Positions 2,151 to 11,635 of a DNA stretch of 64,000 nt are shown here, piece by piece. The stretch spans positions 64,001 through 128,000 of the forward strand of contig CAWBOS010000011.1 of assembly GCA_963790475.1 (NCBI GenBank). The letters run 5' to 3'. Made by a program: the position numbers and the translations under genes. This DNA is from an uncultured delta proteobacterium. Lineage in GTDB: Bacteria; Desulfobacterota; RBG-13-43-22. Numbering within the stretch: the first letter of the stretch is position 1; each line of letters opens with the position of its first letter. Under the pieces are notes generated by a model, which saw only the letters and a list, made by a program, of their open reading frames with translations, was not told the DNA's origin and made no database searches.

Positions 2151-3728
2151 ATGAACATCCCGCTCACCCCGATACGATTCCTGGAAAGAACTCTGAAACT
2201 TCATGGGGGAAAAACCGGCGTCGTCTGCGGAGACAGCCGTTTCACGTACGCCGCATTTGGGGAACGGGTCCATCGGCTTGCCAACGGTCTGCGCGGTCTC
2301 GGCGTGCAAAAGGGAGACCGGATTTCATACCTGGGATACAACTGTCACCGGCTCCTGGAGGCCTTTTTCGGCATTCCGCAGATCGGCGCCATTCTCATGC
2401 CGCTCAATATCCGGCTGGCCCCTGACGACTTTGACTATATCATCAATGAATCCGAGCCCAGGATTCTGTTCCTGGACCGGGACTTCATCCCTCAGATCGA
2501 ATCGATACGAGGGCATATCCCTTCCGTGAAAAGATTCATTCTCCTGGGTGAGGGCGGCGACACTTGCAACTGGATCAGCGGCACGTACGACGAGATGCTG
2601 GAAGGGTCCTCCCCGAAACCGCCTTATTCTCCCGGGGCCTATCCCTTTGAAGAGGACGACACGGCGGAGATCTTCTATACCAGCGGGACCACTGGCCGGC
2701 CCAAGGGAGTCATGCTGACTCATCGCAACCTATACCTGCATGCCCTGTCACTCCTGGCCTCCTCCCCCATGGATGAGACCGACATCCAGATACATTTGAT
2801 CCCGCTTTTTCATGTCAACGGCTGGGGCACACCCCATTACCTGACGGCCAGGGGCGGGACCCATGTCATGCTCCAGAAATTCGACCCTTCCGAGACCTTG
2901 AAGATCATCCAAAGGGAGAGGGTGACGCGGTTCTACATCATCCCCACCATGGCCAACGCCATCCTGGGGGTGCCCGATCTTGAGAAATATGACCTATCCA
3001 GCATGAGAAGGATCCTTATCGGCGGTGCGCCGCCCCCCACCGGCATGATTGACCGGGTTGAGGAGGTCTTCGGCGCGCTCACTTCCACCGCCTTCGGCAT
3101 GACCGAGACCTGCCCTTTGATCGCTTGGCCCGAACTGAGTCCGTACCTGGATGAGGAGACACGAACCTTCCGTGCCAAGCGCACCTGGGGGTTTCCCATG
3201 GTGGGCGTGGAGTACCGGATCGTGGGCCCCAATGGAAACGACCTCCCCTGGGACGGCGTGTCAGTGGGCGAACTCCTGGTGCGCGGCGACATGGTCATGA
3301 AAGGGTATTACAAGAGCCCCAAGGAAACGGCTGAAACCCTTAAGGATGGCTGGTATCACAGCGGAGACCTGTGCGCCATGGGAGCTGATGGGTCTCTCTA
3401 TATAAAGGACCGGCAGAAAGACATTATCATCAGCGGGGGGGAAAATATCTCGTCCCTGGAAGTGGAGGCGGTTCTCTATTCCCACCCGGACATTCTGGAG
3501 TGCGCGGTTATCGCCAAACCGGACGAAAAGTGGGGGGAAATCCCTCTGGCCTTGGTGGTGCCCAAACCGGGATCCAAAATTTCGCCCGAGGAAGTGATCG
3601 AGTTCGCCAGAAAGAACCTGGCCCATTTCAAGGCCCCAAGAGAAGTGCGCCTGATCAGCGAGTTTCCCAGAGGGGGCACCGGAAAAATCCTCAAATCGGT
3701 GCTGCGAAAGAACCTGCAAACCGATTGA
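2151..3728 (+). CDS. Acyl-CoA synthetase / long-chain fatty acid-CoA ligase
   Basis: YTSGTTGRPKG, FGMTE, SGD, IISGGENI, GKILK motifs. Confidence 0.93.
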   Translation: MNIPLTPIRFLERTLKLHGGKTGVVCGDSRFTYAAFGERVHRLANGLRGLGVQKGDRISYLGYNCHRLLEAFFGIPQIGAILMPLNIRLAPDDFDYIINESEPRILFLDRDFIPQIESIRGHIPSVKRFILLGEGGDTCNWISGTYDEMLEGSSPKPPYSPGAYPFEEDDTAEIFYTSGTTGRPKGVMLTHRNLYLHALSLLASSPMDETDIQIHLIPLFHVNGWGTPHYLTARGGTHVMLQKFDPSETLKIIQRERVTRFYIIPTMANAILGVPDLEKYDLSSMRRILIGGAPPPTGMIDRVEEVFGALTSTAFGMTETCPLIAWPELSPYLDEETRTFRAKRTWGFPMVGVEYRIVGPNGNDLPWDGVSVGELLVRGDMVMKGYYKSPKETAETLKDGWYHSGDLCAMGADGSLYIKDRQKDIIISGGENISSLEVEAVLYSHPDILECAVIAKPDEKWGEIPLALVVPKPGSKISPEEVIEFARKNLAHFKAPREVRLISEFPRGGTGKILKSVLRKNLQTD

Positions 3729-3810
3729 CAACCTTTGAAATAAATTTTGTTATATAATAATTCAAACATTTTTGATTTGAATTCTCAAAAGGTTTGAAGC
3801 TGGATAAAAA

Positions 3811-4107
3811 ATGAGAACCAGGCCTTTGTTCAAGTGTGTTATTGGATTATATGGGCTGCCGCGCGAAATAGCAGGTGCGCCTGAGGTGGAGATAGAACTA
3901 GCGGATGGGGCGTGCCTGAGGGAGGTTGTTGCAACGCTTCGGCGTGAAATTCCTAAACTGGTCGGGCGGGTTATTCGTATCGAACAAGATAAGCTCACAA
4001 GTTATTACGCCTTTAATATCAATGGGCGCCTTTATAATGATGACAAGGAAATTCGAATCCGAAAAGGCGATAAAGTATCGCTGCTGGCCATCGTTTCCGG
4101 GGGATGA
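3811..4107 (+). CDS. MoaD/ThiS-family sulfur carrier
   Basis: About 98 aa beta-grasp size; ends ...GDKVSLLAIVSGG with the C-terminal GG. Confidence 0.85.
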   Translation: MRTRPLFKCVIGLYGLPREIAGAPEVEIELADGACLREVVATLRREIPKLVGRVIRIEQDKLTSYYAFNINGRLYNDDKEIRIRKGDKVSLLAIVSGG

Positions 4108-4266
4108 TTCCCATGGGTTTATGGGGACGCGTTATAATTGGATATGCCGTGCCTATTACCTCATGACCAACAGGGTTGGAGGTTATCACCATGATAAAAG
4201 ATCTGTTATTTTTTGATTAATTGTTTTAACATCAATGAAAATTTTTTAAGAAGAAAGGTCAGTTCA

Positions 4267-4563
4267 ATGCCGCCAGCCTGGTTCTCCGGTCTCCCAAAAA
4301 AATTAAAGGGGTTTCTTAAATTCATTCGGGAATTCCTTTACGGGTTGCTGATCCACGAAATGGACTTAGAAATGAAGAAGGAAAGAGGGCATTTGGACAA
4401 CCTTTTCATGGCAATCGTCTTTGGAGATCTGATAGGCATACCCCTCTTGCCGCCTTATTATTCGATGAGGCTTCTGCCCTATCTGGTTCCTTCCATAGAA
4501 ACATGGAAGCGAAGAATTCTCCGGGAAAAGGATCTGACGGATTTTGTGGCCGGGGACCTTTAG
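4267..4563 (+). CDS. Small CstA/ArsA-associated membrane protein, paralog 2
   Basis: Core LF..I.FGDLIGIPLLPPYYSMRLLPYLVP.I.TWKRRILREKDLTD closely matches 7810..8085. Confidence 0.75.
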   Translation: MPPAWFSGLPKKLKGFLKFIREFLYGLLIHEMDLEMKKERGHLDNLFMAIVFGDLIGIPLLPPYYSMRLLPYLVPSIETWKRRILREKDLTDFVAGDL

Positions 4564-4735
4564 GAGCAGGGAACCGATACTACTCCGGCAATTCGAAATC
4601 AAGATAGGCATCGATGATTGCAGAATCCTGCTTCCCCTTCGAGGATTCACCTTCCTTAACATCCCTGGTATTATTGAACACAATTAAAAAAGGGAAGACT
4701 CGCCAAGAGTGAGAGCAACCTAAGAGGCCCTGTTT

Positions 4736-5113
4736 TTATACCCGTGCTCTTTGTATATGTGCGTCGAGAATGTCGTAGAGCTTCTCCCGATCCCAACCGG
4801 CTAGGACATCCTCCCTGTTGACAATAAAGGCAGGATATTTACGGAAACGGTACCTGAGGGATTTGTAAATCCCCATAAGGGATTTGGCGTCGATAATTAT
4901 GATTCTGACGCGGTGCTTATAAAGGCGGGTAATTTCATGAATCCAATCAGAAAGCTGATGGAGTTCTTCTCGGAACTCTTTCGGATATTCAGCGAGGGCT
5001 TCATTATTCACCTTGCTTTCGAATCCGCTCTCGGTAAATATAGGTCTACATCGGTTACAGTAACTGAATACGGTGAGTAAATTTGTTACAACTTCTATAG
5101 AAATCGGCTTCAT
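4736..5113 (-). CDS. Thioredoxin-like CxxC protein of unknown function
   Basis: Likely start MKPISIEV at 5113; CNRC near the N-terminus; YPAFIVN resembles the cis-Pro strand of a Trx fold. Confidence 0.6.
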   Translation of the reverse strand: MKPISIEVVTNLLTVFSYCNRCRPIFTESGFESKVNNEALAEYPKEFREELHQLSDWIHEITRLYKHRVRIIIIDAKSLMGIYKSLRYRFRKYPAFIVNREDVLAGWDREKLYDILDAHIQRARV

Positions 5114-5709
5114 AACAATTCTAATATAATACCTGCATTCTTTTCTTTCAACCCCTATGCGCTTACAACCGCTGCACCACTGTCGCGCCCCCGTGAACTG
5201 CACCGCTATCTGAGACAGTAAGCTGTGCGATTTACAAATAAATCTAAAAAGTTGACTCATAAATTGTAATTCCAAGGACGTCCCGTTTCCTTCACCGCTG
5301 GTTCGGCGATGGGGATCGAAGAAATCGTACTCGGCTTTGAGCAAACCGGTCCTTGTCTTGATCTCCTCCCCCAACTCCAGTTGGGTATCGTTTTCCAGGG
5401 TGTATGCCGGCCAGGTGCGGGCTTTCGATAAAAGGGGGCGTTTGACCTGTCTTTTTAGGTCAAACCCCTGAATTCTCTGTTGGAGAGCACGGGGATGAAA
5501 GGGCTACCTACTCTATGAGGACTTGGTAAAATATGAAGCACGGGCATAAAAAAAACCACCTCCAGATATAAAGAAAAAAATCTTAGGCAGTTAGATTGAT
5601 TTTTAATGTCCCGTGCAGAAGCACGAGGTTATTTATTTTAATGGAACGAGAATCATAAAAGCAACAAGATAGGATAATAAATCGGGTAACGGCCCAACAA
5701 AAGAAAATC

Positions 5710-6690
5710 CTATACAAACATATGGTCGATCATCCGGTTCAACATAGGTGTTCCTCTAACCTCGGTTTCAAAGAGGGGTATGGTGGCCCTCACCTTGCCT
5801 CCAAAGATTTTCCAGATTTCTTCCATGTGCCCTTCCTGCATTTCAACCCGGTTACGCACGAATTCCGCTGAATCTATTCCCACCTGGTCTTTCTGGATGA
5901 TGCCGTTGACCAACACACCCCCTACAGGTATTCCGAATTCATAAAACCAATTGATGAAACGGGTGATAACCGCGATCGGAAGGGCCTCGGGCAGGGTGGC
6001 AAAAAAGAAGGCGGTCAGGCTTTCGTCGGTAAGGAGACTCTGGGCCTTAGCCATTCGGTCTTTAAAGCTTAAGAGATACTCCATCAGGGGGTCCTTCTCT
6101 TTTTTCTTGGAAAAGGAGAGGGCTTCTCTCAACGTTTTTGCCTCATCTCTGCTTTTCAGCATCTTCTCAACCCAGAGGGAATAGACCTTGGACATCCCTA
6201 ATAGACGCCTGGCGTTGGCCGTGGGGGCGGTGTCGAAAACATAAAATTCATATTCGTCTTTGAACATAAGGTCGGTCATGTTTTCAAACATGGCCGATTC
6301 TTCAAAGGCCGGGTTCATCGTGGCCGATTCCACAAAATCATCCGCCTTTGTGGAAAGATCTGCAAATCTCAAAAACCAATTGATCTTTTCACGGATCTCT
6401 TTCTTGGACCGCTCAATAGTATCGCGTGTGTCTATTTCAAAGGCATAACAGAATTTTTCATCACACACGGTGACCGCTTTTCCGAAGACGTCCTGTTCAA
6501 AGAGATTGGAGAGACTGTGAACGGGGTTGGTGGAGGTAAGCAGTGTTTTTCTTCCTTGTTTGGCTGACCAAAGGGCCGCAGCCCCGGCCATAACCGTTTT
6601 CCCCACCCCCCCTTTCCCGCCAAAAAAGATATATTTGAGATTAGGATGGTTTTTCATATATTGAGTCATGCTTAGGGTGATGTGATCCAT
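5710..6690 (-). CDS. ArsA/Get3-family ATPase, single domain, switch-I Asp replaced by Asn
   Basis: GGKGGVGKT, STNPVHSL, FDTAPTAN. GGAG RBS before ATG 6690. Confidence 0.92.
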   Translation of the reverse strand: MDHITLSMTQYMKNHPNLKYIFFGGKGGVGKTVMAGAAALWSAKQGRKTLLTSTNPVHSLSNLFEQDVFGKAVTVCDEKFCYAFEIDTRDTIERSKKEIREKINWFLRFADLSTKADDFVESATMNPAFEESAMFENMTDLMFKDEYEFYVFDTAPTANARRLLGMSKVYSLWVEKMLKSRDEAKTLREALSFSKKKEKDPLMEYLLSFKDRMAKAQSLLTDESLTAFFFATLPEALPIAVITRFINWFYEFGIPVGGVLVNGIIQKDQVGIDSAEFVRNRVEMQEGHMEEIWKIFGGKVRATIPLFETEVRGTPMLNRMIDHMFV

Positions 6691-6725
6691 AGTGAAGCTC
6701 CTTGATGCTTCCTGTTGGAGATTTT

Positions 6726-7715
6726 TCAAAACATCCGTGCCGCCAGTTTTTCAATCATCTCCAGGCCCGTCACATCTCGTTCCATCTCGGGCACATAGGC
6801 CAGGATCTGATCTTTAAAGGTATCATTAATGACCTTCAAATATTTCTCCTGCATGACCAGACGATTTTTAAGGTACTCGGGAATCTGTTGACGGCTCAGC
6901 TCTTCCGGCAAAACCCGGTTGACGATATAACCGCTTAAAGGCACATCGAATTTAGCGAAAAGTCCGGCGGCCTTCAGGGTATCGTCAATCACCATTTCTT
7001 CGGCCGTTACCACGAAAAAAAAGGCGGTCTTTTCTTTATCGGTCAGTATACTGGAGGATTTGTTGATCCGATCCTTGATATAAAGCAGCTCATTTAAAAT
7101 GGCGTCTTCATCCAACTCTTTTTCGCGACGTATCACGGCTGCCGCCTGGTCATATTCCCGCATCTGCTGACGGAGATTGGTAATCTTATCGATCCATTCA
7201 TCATAGACGGAAGCCATGCTGAGATAATACAGGGCATGCCCCAAGGGCACAAGGTCATAAATGTAGTAGTCGTACCCGCCTTTGACCACGATATCGACAA
7301 CTTCATCGAAGATGGCGCTTTCTTCCATGGCCGGTTCGGCTGCGGCGGCCTGAATGTAACTTTCGATCTCTTCCGGGATCTGGTCCATTCCGTAGCGGTC
7401 GAGTATCTTCTGCCGGATTTCCTGCTGATACTCCTTGACCCGGCGGTCGGCATCGATCTCCTGGGCATAAAGATTGGGAATGATCTCCGTGGGACCTTTT
7501 CCAAAAATATCTTTTTTGAAGATATCGCTCAAGGATGCCTGCGGGTCAACGGAAAAAACCAGGACGCGCTTGCCTTGCTTGGCCAGATAATAGGCGGTTG
7601 CCGCCGAAAAAGTGGTCTTGCCGAGGCCGCCCTTCCCGCCGAACATGATGTAGCGTCTCTCCGGATATCGTTCAAATATTTTTGTTAGTGAAATGGTAAT
7701 CACCTCCCTATTCAT
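6726..7715 (-). CDS. ArsA/Get3-family ATPase, single domain
   Basis: GGKGGLGKTT, SVDPQASL, YDLVPLGH, IVNRV. Confidence 0.92.
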   Translation of the reverse strand: MNREVITISLTKIFERYPERRYIMFGGKGGLGKTTFSAATAYYLAKQGKRVLVFSVDPQASLSDIFKKDIFGKGPTEIIPNLYAQEIDADRRVKEYQQEIRQKILDRYGMDQIPEEIESYIQAAAAEPAMEESAIFDEVVDIVVKGGYDYYIYDLVPLGHALYYLSMASVYDEWIDKITNLRQQMREYDQAAAVIRREKELDEDAILNELLYIKDRINKSSSILTDKEKTAFFFVVTAEEMVIDDTLKAAGLFAKFDVPLSGYIVNRVLPEELSRQQIPEYLKNRLVMQEKYLKVINDTFKDQILAYVPEMERDVTGLEMIEKLAARMF

Positions 7716-7809
7716 TTTTAGATTTCGGAGTTGGGAAGGGTGAGCTCGAAATACAGGTAATCATTCTTATTTTTTCTCTCAACCCCGAATTCCTCGCTCC
7801 GAACTTCGT

Positions 7810-8085
7810 TTAGGCCAAAGCGTCAGTAAAATCCTTTTCCCTCAGCATTCTCCTCTTCCAGGTGGAGATCTGGGGAACCACATAAGGCAGCAACCTAAGC
7901 GAGTAATAGGGGGGTAGGATAGGAACGCCGAGCATATCTCCCATGGTAATGAGGATAAAAAGGTGCTCCATGCTCGCTCGGGTCTTCATAGCAAACCGAG
8001 CTGAATCATGAGCGGCCACTCCATAAACAATTTCCTTAACCGCCTGTAGAAATCCCCCTTTTTTCTTTTTCTCCTCTTCGGTCAT
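7810..8085 (-). CDS. Small CstA/ArsA-associated membrane protein, paralog 1
   Basis: Lies between cstA and the ArsA pair. LFILITMGDMLGVPILPPYYSLRLLPY..W.RRM resembles, from recall, small proteins of cstA-arsA operons. Confidence 0.8.
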   Translation of the reverse strand: MTEEEKKKKGGFLQAVKEIVYGVAAHDSARFAMKTRASMEHLFILITMGDMLGVPILPPYYSLRLLPYVVPQISTWKRRMLREKDFTDALA

Positions 8086-8126
8086 AAATACCCTTTCTTT
8101 AAATTTAATCACTTATCATTATAATC

Positions 8127-8158
8127 CCCCTACCCCTTTTACTATGGAGGGGTAGGGG
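8127..8158 (-). terminator. Intercistronic hairpin downstream of cstA
   Basis: CCCCTACCCCT / AGGGGTAGGGG perfect 11-bp stem; no U-tract on the minus strand, so it may be a stabiliser or partial terminator. Confidence 0.5.
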
Positions 8159-8197
8159 TTCGCCTTACTCCTCGCAACTAACCTCTTTCAGAATAAA

Positions 8198-9883
8198 TTA
8201 CGCCTTTGCCGGCGCTCCTTCTGCCCGTATAACTTTATAACGGTTAAAGGCCTTCAGTCCTTCCACCGCCAGAATGACTGCGCAAATGACCAGGAAGATC
8301 GCAACCAAAATCATCAGACTGTTTCCATATATGGCCCCGCCTTTAACCTTTCCCAAATAAATTTGATTAAAAAGCCTCCAGGCAGTAACTAAGAGAGCAG
8401 CCGTGGTAGTGAAAAACATAAAAATCATCGGGTAAAAAGTCCATCCATATCGTTTCCCCTGAGACATCAACCAGGCTGTCATCAGCAACAAGGCCAGGGA
8501 GGCCATCAATTGGTTGGCTCCTCCAAAAAGGATCCAGAGGTATTGCCACCATCCGGTCAAGATCAGAAACAGGGTGAGAAGGCTGGCAATGACAGTCCCA
8601 ATATGGGCATTTTTGAAGACGGGGCTGATATCGCCCAACAATTCCGATGTGGCAACTCGCATAAACCGGATGACGAGTTGCAGGATGGTGACTGCCAGGA
8701 TGATTAACATCACGCCACCATAGGACTTTCCTATAGCAGCGGGCATTCCCAACGCACCCAGGAATTTGGAAACCCCTCCTGCGAAGACGCCGACTGCTCC
8801 CTTGCCCACGGCTGCCGAATATTCGGCCGAGGACGCAAAAATGGTCCCGGCAATGACCAGGGCGAATACACCAAGCATCATTTCTACAAACATTACGCCG
8901 CCCCCTACCGGACGGGCATCCATTTCGCTTTCCAGTTGGCGCGCCGTCCCTGAACTGGAAACGATACTGTGCCATCCGGAGACAGCCCCGCAACCAATGG
9001 TCACAAACATGATGGGCCAGAGAGGCCCGATTCCGATATTAAAAGAAGTGTAAGCCGGAAGTGTAAATTGAGGATGAAGAATAAATACTCCTATGATACC
9101 GAAGAACAACCCCAGGAAGACAATGTAAGAGGCAACGTAGTTGATTGGAAGGGCGAACCTCCAGATGGGTAAAACCGCCGCGAAGTAGCAGAAGACCAGC
9201 GCAGCAATCGCCCATACCACTCTGCTATTAGCAATACCGGCTCCAAGGATGCTGTCAGAGGGAGCAACTGATCCAAGGTATATCCCAAACAACATAATGA
9301 GCACGGTGACAACCGTGGTCAGAATAATATCCTTTTTCCAGCGAAAGATCATCTGCCCGGCAAGAATTCCACCAAAGGTGAGAAAGAGCCAGGCTATGGG
9401 AGAGCTTTTTTGCCCTATGGCGGCATCAACGACGATATTCCCAAAAGCACCAGCGACCAGAAGCAGAAAGAAATAGATAAAACAGAGAAGAATGATCCGA
9501 GCTTTCGGTGAAATCAATTTGTAACTTAATCCACCGAAGGAAGCCCCCTCATTTCGCATGGCCACCACTGCGCTGGAATAGTCATGGATCCAGCCGATTA
9601 ATAACGCACCAAGCAAGAGCCACAGCAAGGCAGGGAGCCATCCCCATTGGATAGCAATGATAGGCCCGATAACCGGAGCTGCGCCGGCAATGGATTTGAA
9701 TTGGTATCCGAAGAGGATGTTCTTACTGGTAGGCATGAACTCAACGCCGTCCATGTACATCTTGGCCGGGGTAGCTCTGTTGGGGTCGGACTTGATGATC
9801 TTGGTATCGATATACTTGGAATAAAAACGATAGCCGATAAACGCGACAATAAAACCCAAAACAAGGACAATAACTGAATTCAT
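8198..9883 (-). CDS. cstA: Carbon starvation protein A family transporter
   Basis: TPA..MDG.EF.PT, F.SIAGAAPVIGP, IGCGAVSGWHS, W.LFGGANQLMA motifs; many TM segments. Confidence 0.93.
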   Translation of the reverse strand: MNSVIVLVLGFIVAFIGYRFYSKYIDTKIIKSDPNRATPAKMYMDGVEFMPTSKNILFGYQFKSIAGAAPVIGPIIAIQWGWLPALLWLLLGALLIGWIHDYSSAVVAMRNEGASFGGLSYKLISPKARIILLCFIYFFLLLVAGAFGNIVVDAAIGQKSSPIAWLFLTFGGILAGQMIFRWKKDIILTTVVTVLIMLFGIYLGSVAPSDSILGAGIANSRVVWAIAALVFCYFAAVLPIWRFALPINYVASYIVFLGLFFGIIGVFILHPQFTLPAYTSFNIGIGPLWPIMFVTIGCGAVSGWHSIVSSSGTARQLESEMDARPVGGGVMFVEMMLGVFALVIAGTIFASSAEYSAAVGKGAVGVFAGGVSKFLGALGMPAAIGKSYGGVMLIILAVTILQLVIRFMRVATSELLGDISPVFKNAHIGTVIASLLTLFLILTGWWQYLWILFGGANQLMASLALLLMTAWLMSQGKRYGWTFYPMIFMFFTTTAALLVTAWRLFNQIYLGKVKGGAIYGNSLMILVAIFLVICAVILAVEGLKAFNRYKVIRAEGAPAKA

Positions 9884-10309
9884 AATTACCTCCTCACTTT
9901 TAAAGGGTTAGAACGCTTATTTTGTGTATCGCTTAAATCCTCCTTGAAATTAATAAGTTATTTCTATAATTAGGAAAATGAAAAGTCAATAGAAATATCA
10001 AGCAAAGCTTGTTTCACTTCGAAGGAATAACGTAATTGGGGATTGTTGGCAAGTCCTTTATAGGAGGGGCAACTGTCCCTCAACCCAACTACTGCTCAGG
10101 TCAACCAGAACAACTTAAGGCTTGTCTTGAATTCTGACTTTTAATTTCCAAGGGCATCTAATCGGGCTGGCCTTGGCCTGCTTTTTTTCTTCTCTTTTAT
10201 ATCTCTATTTGTAAAGTTGTCTTTGGCCCAGCGTTCGCCTTTTTCCGGCCGGTCCGTTTGCTATTTGGCGTCCGCGGACAACGCAGACAAAAACAGACTG
10301 AAATATAGG

Positions 10310-10341
10310 TTTTCCCCCGGCGTTGGTCCGCCGGGGGAAAA
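10310..10341 (-). terminator. Rho-independent terminator after thiolase
   Basis: TTTTCCCCCGGCG-ttggtc-CGCCGGGGGAAAA perfect stem. Confidence 0.65.
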
Positions 10342-10399
10342 GTCTAGTGGTCGTCTGTGTGGGTCCGTGGCAAAATGGGTTTTATTCGGCCCTTCAGGG

Positions 10400-11635
10400 T
10401 CAAACCGCCTCCACCACGGTGGCGATGCCGACTCCGCCGCCGCCGCAGATCATCTGGAGGCCGGCCCTCCCCTTGGTGCGCTTGAGGTGATGGGCCATTT
10501 CCCCGAAGTAGATGACTCCGGATGCCCCAATGGGATGACCCAGGGCAATGGCCCCACCTGTCGGATTCACCCGGGGATCGAAACGGTCGTAGCCCAGATC
10601 ATCGGCAAACTGGAGCAAGGGGGAGGCGAAGGCTTCGTTGGGCTCGATGATGTCCATATCCGCGATGGTTTTGCCGGCCCGCTTGAGGGCTTTTCTCGCC
10701 GCCGGGATAGGCGCCAGGAGCATGGGCACCGGCTCCCCTCCGGCCACGGCACAGGCTGAAATCTTACAAAGAGGTTCAAGTCCCAGGGCCTCGGCCTTGT
10801 CGGCACTCATCAGCAGGACCGCAGCCGCCCCATCCACGATCTGCGAGGAATTGCCGGCACTGACCCGCCCTTTTTCCTTAAAAGGTGTGGGAAGGCCCAT
10901 AAGATCCTGGAGGTAGGCCTCAGGATCCTCCACCGCCTTGGCCCGAAGGACCTCGTCTTTTTCAACCTTTCGGGTCACTCCTTCATAGGTGAACTCGAAG
11001 GGAACAATATGTTCCGCAAACCAGCCCTTCCTCTGGGCCTCGATGGCCTTCTGCATACTCCACCTGCCAAAACGCTCCAGGTCCTCCCGGGTGTGCTTCT
11101 GGTCCTCGGAGATCATTTCGGCGCAAAGCCCCTGGGGCACGGACAGGCCGCCCTCCGCCAGGCGTTCCGACAACCGAACGGGATATTTGGCATCGATGGC
11201 CACCTGAATATCCGACATCATGCCGTAGTGGGACATGATCTCCACGCCCCCGCAGACAAAGATGTCTCCCTCCCCGGCCATGATTTCATGGGCAGCGATA
11301 TTGATGGCCTTGAGTCCGGCATTGCAATACTGGTTCACTGTGCAACCTGCCGCCTCGTTGGGGATACCGGCCAGGAGAGAGGCCACGCGCGCAATATTGG
11401 CCCCTTGTTCCCCGATCTGGCTCAGACAACCAATGATCACGTTTTCGATTTCCGATTCGTCGAATTTGGGGCTTCGGGAGTGAACCCTGTCCAACAATCC
11501 CCGGAGAATCCTGGCCAGGAAATCCTGAGCCGATGCCTGGCAAAGCTGGCCGCCTTTTTCCATTCCCTTGCGCCCCGATTTGCCGATAGCCGACCGTACC
11601 GCATCCACGACAACCACTTCTTTCAAACTTTTCAT
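10400..11635 (-). CDS. Thiolase (acetyl-CoA C-acyltransferase)
   Basis: NQYCNAG, NEAF, GHPIGASG, CGGGG. GGAGAGG RBS before ATG 11635. Confidence 0.93.
   Translation of the reverse strand: MKSLKEVVVVDAVRSAIGKSGRKGMEKGGQLCQASAQDFLARILRGLLDRVHSRSPKFDESEIENVIIGCLSQIGEQGANIARVASLLAGIPNEAAGCTVNQYCNAGLKAINIAAHEIMAGEGDIFVCGGVEIMSHYGMMSDIQVAIDAKYPVRLSERLAEGGLSVPQGLCAEMISEDQKHTREDLERFGRWSMQKAIEAQRKGWFAEHIVPFEFTYEGVTRKVEKDEVLRAKAVEDPEAYLQDLMGLPTPFKEKGRVSAGNSSQIVDGAAAVLLMSADKAEALGLEPLCKISACAVAGGEPVPMLLAPIPAARKALKRAGKTIADMDIIEPNEAFASPLLQFADDLGYDRFDPRVNPTGGAIALGHPIGASGVIYFGEMAHHLKRTKGRAGLQMICGGGGVGIATVVEAV

Follow-up and report, generated by a model that had tools for sequence, protein, structure and literature searches.

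Gene clusters in which a CstA-family permease lies beside ArsA-like ATPases and a small protein, CstX, were described by Castillo & Saier (2010; Int J Microbiol, PMC2963123). The accessible part of that paper lists 26 CstA–ArsA associations, 24 of them with CstX, and records adjacent ArsA pairs (25–31% identical) in two organisms and two CstX paralogues in two organisms. It remarks that Asn is the only replacement seen for the Asp of the SxD motif in single-domain proteins, describes CstX as a protein with a single transmembrane segment (TMS) that never occurs without CstA, and puts forward the idea that CstA is energised by ArsA, CstX linking the two. In Escherichia coli, CstA and the small protein YbdD are presented in the accessible text of PMC5847655 as a pyruvate transporter system, an earlier example of CstA working together with a small protein. 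The cluster analysed here lies in a 64,000-nucleotide stretch of DNA from an uncultured delta proteobacterium (GTDB lineage Desulfobacterota, RBG-13-43-22; assembly GCA_963790475.1, contig CAWBOS010000011.1, positions 64,001 to 128,000 of the forward strand), referred to below as the window. It is a standard copy of the cstA–cstX–arsA-homologue module and no new kind of system; its two ATPases carry Asp and Asn, respectively, at the catalytic switch-I position, and this couple is fixed and ancient.

Positions are those of the window. The module is encoded on the minus strand and begins with cstA (8198–9883), the sole CstA gene found in a genome-wide search, which specifies a 561-residue CstA-family permease (Pfam PF02554, 448 bits; cut-off 27). 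Between cstA and arsA1 lies cstX1 (7810–8085; 91 residues from ATG), assigned to Pfam DUF7990 (PF25952). arsA1 (6726–7715; 329 residues) encodes a single-domain Get3/ArsA-type ATPase with Asp57 in switch I, and arsA2 (5710–6690; 326 residues from ATG) a paralogous ATPase with Asn55. An alternative GTG start at 8112 would give a 100-residue form of CstX1, the orthologues of which begin at the ATG, and a TTG at 6729 would give a 339-residue ArsA2 overlapping the arsA1 stop. A first-pass annotation made from the DNA letters had reported cstA, the 91-residue gene and the two ATPases as co-directional, with a second paralogue of the small protein and a CxxC protein downstream; all of these genes were found where it had placed them, and the switch motifs that it quoted for both ATPases were exact. 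Its statement that cstA–small gene–arsA neighbourhoods had been noticed before is borne out by the accessible text of Castillo & Saier (2010).

One genome per species was scanned with a CstX alignment. At least 598 stretches matched and 532 were confirmed, of which the best 80 were kept as the locus set; these came mostly from metagenome-assembled genomes of Thermodesulfobacteriota, with single Spirochaetes, Leptospirales, Nitrospirota and Hakubella records. cstA, cstX, arsA1 and arsA2 were colinear on one strand in 72 of the 80 loci, and the other eight are cut by contig ends and keep the genes that fit. Clustering of all other open reading frames (ORFs) in the 80 loci gave no fifth conserved gene: the clusters common to 13–16 loci (radical-S-adenosylmethionine-like and others) are the local synteny of one subclade and are absent from the window. 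The core of the module is four genes only. The co-conservation of six genes envisaged in the first-pass annotation held for these four; it did not extend to the two accessory genes, since a thioredoxin-like gene was found beside the module in nine of the 80 close loci and five of ten divergent loci, and a second CstX near it in 13 of the 80 and six of the ten. In three loci of one family (L092, L093 and L097) the module is split: cstA and the thioredoxin-like gene occupy one strand, while cstX–arsA1–arsA2 stay together, divergent, on the other.

For motif counts only ORFs aligned over at least 280 residues were taken. ArsA1 has SVDPQASL at switch I and DLVPLGH at switch II; the corresponding motifs of ArsA2 are STNPVHSL and DTAPTAN, and its switch II is without Gly-His. 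SVDPQASL(S/T) together with DLVPLGH was present in 69 of 69 ArsA1 orthologues. Asn, within STNPVH(S/R)LS, was present in 71 of 71 ArsA2 orthologues, 70 of which have DTAPTAN (the remaining one has a gap at that site). The deviant Walker A motif GKGGxGKT occurs in both ATPases, and the P-loops GKGGLGKT and GKGGVGKT were intact in 69/69 ArsA1 and 69/71 ArsA2 rows, the other two being N-terminally cut. When ArsA2 was aligned with the archaeal Get3 3ug6, its Asn fell at the Asp position of STDPAHSL.

The same asymmetry was found in more distant relatives. 20 loci were fetched around lower-scoring CstX matches of a phylum sample described below, and ten of them hold ATPase pairs, with CstA proteins 36–50% identical to that of the window. 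In all ten the leading gene codes for Asp at this position and the following one for Asn, and nine of the pairs have the motifs of the window; the deepest divergent pair, L100, has STDPQASL/DMPPFGH and SLNPVHSL/DAKPFID. One more pair (L127), from a sample around genome G301, is again Asp/Asn. A quick maximum-likelihood tree of 82 rows was calculated from the window pair, 35 + 35 rows of the ArsA1 and ArsA2 alignments (A2, A3), the L127 pair and eight of the 11 single ATPases of loci L115–L125 (L117, L123 and L125 were filtered out); a careful search was unfinished, and L118 and L100 were marked as long branches. All 37 Asn proteins formed one clade (Shimodaira–Hasegawa-like approximate likelihood-ratio support 99), and the 34 Asp proteins of the pairs (98) were its sister group (94). 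Forms with a single ATPase fell outside the paired clades, and one Asp/Asn change suffices to explain the tree. With a single Asn clade sister to the Asp partners, the simplest history is therefore one duplication and one loss of the catalytic Asp, retained since.

Median identities to the window proteins were 90.1% for CstX (n = 79), 86.5% for ArsA1 (n = 69), 80.2% for ArsA2 (n = 69) and 74.1% for CstA (n = 62); at a median of about 80%, strong purifying selection therefore acts on the Asn subunit. The first-pass annotation had treated the asymmetric pair as a genuine feature, and it is not private to this strain. That ArsA2 is a decaying duplicate and its Asn a private lesion has practically no chance of being correct: the substitution itself can be cited for it and nothing further, against the presence of Asn in every orthologue, in the ten divergent pairs and in one more pair, all in one clade, and against the conservation of ArsA2 and its invariant P-loop. 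On these grounds it was rejected. Get3 D57N, which the first-pass annotation had rightly named as the hydrolysis-dead mutation, is the standard ATP-locked form of Get3: it binds ATP without hydrolysing it and is locked in the closed, ATP-bound state, according to the accessible part of PMC12506534. From what is known of the family, the ArsA2 site may be a natural counterpart that has lost hydrolysis, and ArsA1 and ArsA2 may form a heterodimer.

In the explanation that we tentatively prefer, giving it somewhat less than an even chance, the two ATPases make a heterodimer in which one site works, and CstX couples this heterodimer to CstA. The most likely arrangement of ArsA1 and ArsA2 would be an ATP-sandwich heterodimer, as in the Get3/ArsA (SIMIBI) class, whose two sites differ. 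That of ArsA1, which keeps the catalytic Asp, could hydrolyse ATP; the ArsA2 site should still bind ATP because its P-loop is intact, and with Asn for Asp and the switch-II Gly-His lost it would hold the ATP as a structural or regulatory nucleotide. CstX would not anchor the pair in the membrane; it would be a three-helix protein of the cytoplasm that binds the ATPase pair and couples it to CstA. One ATP-hydrolysis cycle might then gate or energise transport by CstA, in a manner similar to the action of ArsA on ArsB, also a secondary carrier. The energising or gating of CstA with a small protein as adaptor, which the first-pass annotation also put forward, is the hypothesis proposed in 2010, as given in the accessible part of PMC2963123.

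Family assignment of the ATPases was made with profile models. Both pass TIGR00345 (Get3/TRC40/ArsA subfamily; ArsA1 241.5 bits, ArsA2 199.8 bits, cut-off 135) and match the Pfam ArsA_ATPase family, and they are 33% identical to each other over 325 residues. Scores against the arsenical pump equivalog TIGR04291 were 104.9 and 93.3 bits, below its cut-off of 650. The BagA/BagB models NF053622 and NF053621 (cut-offs 400 and 521) gave 55 and 37.9 bits for ArsA1 and 38 and 33.1 bits for ArsA2, likewise below. The nearest solved relatives of both ATPases were the archaeal Get3 homologues 3ug6 and 3zq6 (E values 1e-46 to 1e-58); 3ug6 was the closest to ArsA1 (E 2.9e-58), and PDB entry 6bs3 matched ArsA1 with an E value of only 9.6e-8. 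In the 36-row alignments no Cys column was common to at least 30% of the ArsA1 rows, and ArsA2 has only two partly conserved Cys residues, at positions 76 (23/36) and 81 (27/36). These have the spacing C-x4-C, while ArsA1 and CstX have no conserved Cys. As the first-pass annotation had noted, a Zn-binding CxxC of the Get3 type was not found in either alignment.

An ATPase of arsenite resistance working with an unlinked Acr3 pump is very improbable for this pair. An Acr3 gene, the only one in the genome, does lie on a different contig (C13), and the ArsA_ATPase match is compatible with such a role. Against it stand the low equivalog scores, the absence of the metalloid-binding Cys triad from ArsA1 and ArsA2, which are single-domain proteins and not two fused halves, and the constant linkage to cstA. 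Genome-wide searches found no ArsB, no ArsD and no ArsC of PF03960 (ArsR and low-molecular-weight phosphatase-type ArsC were not searched for), in line with the observation of the first-pass annotation that no arsenic genes lie in the window. The arsenic pump was rejected on these points, and the first-pass annotation, which had not taken the pair for one, was right in this.

The genome holds other ArsA-family genes, of different kinds. A two-domain ArsA homologue (695-residue frame; L113, G000:C13:76000-94000, ORF 7804–9891) lies within a gas-vesicle cluster, with GvpA/J-like, GvpF/L-like and GvpN genes as neighbours; such a cluster is the other non-arsenic ArsA context of the 2010 paper, in its accessible part (PMC2963123). 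A third ArsA-family gene (L114:354-1604, G000:C15) encodes a 416-residue protein of the NosAFP/Get3d-like kind, which matches the NCBIfam NosAFP model (Get3/ArsA fold) over its full length but scores 123.6 bits where the cut-off is 325, and adjoins an ADP-forming acetyl-CoA synthetase-like gene.

Clustered at 50% identity, the CstX family (E up to 0.001) gave 535 clusters; most members are of 70–140 residues and stand-alone. The DUF7990 label rests on homologues: proteins 76–98% identical carry PF25952, and the nearest Atlas clusters are 97–100% DUF7990. CstX1 and CstX2, the product of the second CstX gene of the window, matched the NCBIfam cory-CC-star model NF041419 with 36.6 bits (E 3e-9) and 36.0 bits, below the cut-off of 80, and the homology between CstX and cory-CC-star was significant in both search directions. 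The two chains end in ...DALA and ...AGDL, respectively, not in Cys-Cys, and CstX1 is without any Cys. Among the literature matches listed, only Castillo & Saier use the term 'CstX' in this sense and neither 'DUF7990' nor 'PF25952' occurs; 'cory-CC-star' gave no literature match. The predicted model of CstX1 has three helices (residues 3–52, 59–74 and 76–90; predicted local distance difference test score, pLDDT, 70.6) and gave no fold match in the PDB with Foldseek at E 0.001 or better. By sequence, no solved relatives were found for CstA or for CstX.

The first-pass annotation had counted CstX1 and CstX2 as small membrane proteins, which the hydropathy does not establish. The best 19-residue Kyte–Doolittle window of CstX1 scores 1.49, and the median over 45 family members is 1.51; the threshold of 1.6 is reached in 16 of the 45 and missed in 29, and in the Cys-Cys-ended homologues the best window scores 0.87–1.24. 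The hydrophobic stretch also holds an invariant Gly and Pro and a near-invariant Asp. With sub-threshold hydropathy and these conserved residues, the 'single TMS' or membrane label of CstX is therefore doubted, and CstX is probably not a membrane protein. Of the 18 longer forms found, most have no domain besides CstX; ArsA domains are present as well in four and the end of CstA in one. P0270 (414 residues) is a compact CstX–ArsA1 fusion with a short linker, P0278 (421 residues) likewise has CstX fused to ArsA1, and in P0174 (213 residues) the C-terminal end of CstA is joined to CstX; each of these three is a singleton metagenomic protein. P0270 and P0174, if real, would place both ends of CstX in the cytoplasm. 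Together with the split loci, in which cstX stays with arsA1–arsA2, the P0270 fusion indicates that CstX goes with the ATPases, which favours the coupled heterodimer.

The kinship of the ATPases to archaeal Get3 and their passing of TIGR00345 bring in a second explanation, in which the pair would be a dedicated Get3-like chaperone or targeting factor that shields helices of CstX or CstA and aids insertion or assembly of the permease. The Asn subunit would then serve as an intrinsic trap, locked with ATP, through which the closed state that binds the client lasts longer: held closed in this way, the heterodimer could capture hydrophobic parts of CstX or CstA and assemble the permease. The closed, ATP-bound form of Get3 D57N agrees with such a trap, and the borderline hydrophobic stretch of CstX, above threshold in the minority of members, with a possible client. 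The stretch is nevertheless sub-threshold in most members and lower still in the Cys-Cys homologues, with its conserved Gly, Asp and Pro, and in the fusions the end of CstA precedes the N-terminus of CstX and a cytoplasmic ATPase follows the C-terminus, as expected of a cytoplasmic protein and not of a tail anchor. No Get1/2-like receptor is known here, and none was searched for. We consider a biogenesis factor of this kind unlikely, while giving it more weight than any of the other alternatives.

Relatives with one ATPase were found in two samples. Three loci of the phylum sample (L106–L108) have cstA–cstX followed by a single ATPase with SIDPAHN and DTPPTGL. The second sample comprised 301 genomes of the phylum of genome G301 (which holds the Hakubella record; Actinomycetota in the NCBI taxonomy), and the CstX profile matched 17 of them. 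All 11 weak-match loci fetched from this sample have cstA, next an ORF of 85–88 residues with Cys-Cys at its end (any greater length is due to ORF calling that extended upstream) and last a single ATPase with the canonical motifs STDPAH and DTAP(T/S)GH. The Cys-Cys-ended proteins in the position of CstX are the cory-CC-star proteins, and the CstX of the two-ATPase module is the cysteine-free variety. E. coli YbdD is also encoded just after cstA and ends in Cys-Cys, though no homology to CstX was detected (hhalign probability 0.5%); relatives of YbdD ending in Cys-Sec are reported in the accessible part of a preprint (10.1101/2022.07.06.499078). With CstX, cory-CC-star and YbdD all beside cstA, CstA is thus repeatedly accompanied by a small cytoplasmic partner.

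The accessory genes of the window lie downstream of the module. The CxxC gene (4736–5113, minus strand; 125 residues, with the start set where homologues start) gave an AlphaFold model (pLDDT 79.5) with a beta-alpha-beta core, the CxxC starting helix 1 and a cis-Pro loop. Its top 50 Foldseek matches were all thioredoxins or thioredoxin-containing entries (best E 7.6e-4, template-modelling scores 0.51/0.59). It has no Pfam or NCBIfam match, and the sequence link of the family to thioredoxin is weak, with two of 14 members matching PF00085. The CxxC motif is retained in ten of the 14 aligned homologues, and in the three split loci the thioredoxin-like gene is a short form without it. cstX2 (4267–4563, plus strand; 98 residues) is convergent with the module; its product is 53% identical to CstX1 over 85 residues (E 6e-35), and the two are the only DUF7990 copies in the genome. 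cstX2 comes after a MoaD/ThiS-like gene, the two together spanning 3811–4563. Lone CstX2-type paralogues were seen elsewhere: one (L101, 548–3824) has FeoB directly upstream and a MoCF_biosynth protein of about 350 residues directly downstream, a second (L110, 1098–2445) has such a MoCF_biosynth protein directly downstream, and two (L104, 3896–4661; L105, 1165–1863) have NikR directly downstream.

These neighbours and the Cys-Cys termini suggest a further explanation, in which the small protein and the ATPase or ATPases would be a unit acting on a thiophilic metal, metalloid or cofactor, like the SIMIBI metallochaperones, with CstA merely the usual neighbour that moves the substrate. It would account for the Cys-Cys ends of the cory-CC-star homologues between cstA and one canonical ArsA in 11/11 loci, for the Cys-Cys and Cys-Sec ends in YbdD and its relatives, although YbdD is an unrelated partner of CstA, for FeoB, NikR, MoCF_biosynth and MoaD/ThiS-like genes beside lone or second CstX copies, and for the recurrence of a thioredoxin-fold CxxC protein near the module. 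We regard it as doubtful and less probable than the biogenesis factor: in the two-ATPase module CstX has no Cys and ArsA1 no conserved Cys, the lone-paralogue contexts come from only seven loci of related subgroups, and the thioredoxin-like gene is absent from most loci and has lost its CxxC in four of the 14 aligned sequences.

Distribution was surveyed across 301 evenly sampled genomes of the phylum. A CstX match is present in 47, with two matches in 25 of the 47, and a CstA match in 149 (about half). 45 of the 47 CstX genomes also have CstA, which corresponds to about a third of the CstA genomes (45/149); linked ATPases were confirmed in the fetched loci only. Within the genus of the window the same four of nine genomes hold both CstX and CstA, so that within the genus the module is either wholly present or wholly absent. 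The module proteins are 80–90% identical across families and in the Nitrospirota and Spirochaetes records, the Nitrospirota ArsA2 nests among Thermodesulfobacteriota rows in the tree, and the G+C content of the module region (window 3500–10000) is 0.44–0.51, compared with 0.55–0.59 in the flanks. Low G+C content, patchy presence in the genus, cross-family identity and the nested Nitrospirota ArsA2 together suggest horizontal spread of the module.

Contact between CstX and the ATPases was examined by complex prediction, with CstX modelled against ArsA1, ArsA2 and two ATP and each protein supplied as an alignment, in three runs with three controls. The runs scored 0.25, 0.41 and 0.39 (median 0.39), compared with 0.19 for the best control, and the outcome was classed as 'weak support'. 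The runs agreed in at least 54% of contacts with a partner pLDDT of at least 48, and no contacts were reported. The mark for such scores is reached by 116 of 157 solved complexes and two of 215 mismatched pairs; at scores of 0.60 or below it is reached by only 18 of the 157 and by both of the passing mismatches. The score nudges the odds towards contact between CstX and the ATPases, short of demonstrating it. The adaptor role that the first-pass annotation gave to the small proteins is put here more weakly than it was there.

Several points weigh against the one-site heterodimer coupled to CstA. Unless the contact was already probable on other grounds, a complex score of this kind misleads more often than not. 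The nearest solved relatives of the ATPases, as matched by sequence, are chaperones and not pump subunits. The switch II of ArsA1 (DLVPLGH) is unusual, so that its activity is assumed. The CstX fusions are all singletons and could be errors of assembly or gene calling. The literature search found no experimental study of the module. Lone CstX2-type paralogues occur away from cstA and the ATPases, and two of the 47 CstX-bearing genomes (G186 and G262, with the lone paralogue only) had no CstA match with this query; DUF7990 is therefore not only a CstA subunit.

Candidate regulatory elements were found around the genes, all on the minus strand. A repeat search identified a perfect 11 bp inverted repeat with a 10-nt loop (8127–8158) in the cstA–cstX spacer, with arms CCCCTACCCCT / AGGGGTAGGGG and no T tract 3' of it; through it the amount of cstA transcript relative to that of the downstream genes could be set. 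A terminator-like stem-loop (5681–5698), 12 nt past the arsA2 stop, is likely to be the end of the operon; like a promoter-like site (5151–5123) just upstream of the CxxC gene, which probably has a promoter of its own here, it was found by pattern scan, the stem-loop as a consensus match only. An Rfam scan of 3500–10600 (E up to 1) gave two chance-level matches only, and therefore no known riboswitch lies upstream of cstA.

CstA-family carriers are common importers of nutrients (pyruvate or peptides). The puzzle posed by the module is that such a secondary carrier is paired with a Get3/ArsA-type ATPase and that evolution has fixed a partner expected to bind, not split, ATP; the pair is a natural experiment on one-site SIMIBI dimers. 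It is possible, although we think it unlikely, that the module is either a prokaryotic relative of the GET system (named for the guided entry of proteins with tail anchors) with one client or an ATP-driven hybrid pump of a kind undemonstrated beyond ArsAB. Either, if true, would provide a natural one-site Get3 and assign a first function to this module, which occurs across bacteria and archaea. The pair could also reveal a GET-like route of assembly in bacteria or a second example of an ATPase attached to a secondary carrier. The value of the present copy is that it is a clean, complete example with both accessory genes.

Among the described systems the clusters of Castillo & Saier are the closest. 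They share with the window a CstA permease, a CstX of about 90 residues, single-domain ArsA homologues of about 330 residues and the absence of ars genes; compared with the cstA–cstX–(cstY)–arsA clusters, the module of the window is without CstY. The hydrophobic stretch of CstX is here sub-threshold in most members and lone paralogues occur away from cstA, in contrast to the membrane-bound, CstA-linked CstX of the accessible text of PMC2963123, in which a fixed Asp/Asn couple of single origin is not stated either. Cory-CC-star proteins (about 88 residues) occupy the same place between cstA and an ArsA gene and end in Cys-Cys, while CstX ends in DALA. With E. coli YbdD/YjiX (DUF466) CstX shares the position after cstA, not detectable homology.

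E. coli ArsA–ArsB resembles the module in the ATPase superfamily and in the attachment of an ATPase to a secondary carrier. E. coli ArsA has two unlike nucleotide sites, in its A1 and A2 halves, within one functional dimer, and both halves keep the Asp. It is a fused two-domain chain with a metalloid Cys triad encoded in ars operons, features not seen in the window pair. Archaeal Get3 (3ug6/3ug7, 3zq6) and eukaryotic Get3/TRC40 share length, P-loop and fold family with the ATPases of the window. They are homodimers or tetramers of one gene product with Asp in every subunit, whereas the window pair has Asp57 in ArsA1 and Asn55 in ArsA2, and Get3 genes do not lie with cstA; in the control genome, that of M. 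jannaschii, there was no CstA match. The interface CxxC that binds Zn in eukaryotic Get3 has no counterpart in the window pair, nor are archaeal Get3 homologues known to have it. To our knowledge, no Get1/2-type receptor or insertase is known in bacteria, and we know of no cstA/cstX context for the mycobacterial BagA–BagB. These two proteins (Rv3679–Rv3680) are likewise Get3-like ATPases encoded by adjacent genes, and they are described as interacting in the accessible part of PMC10597346.

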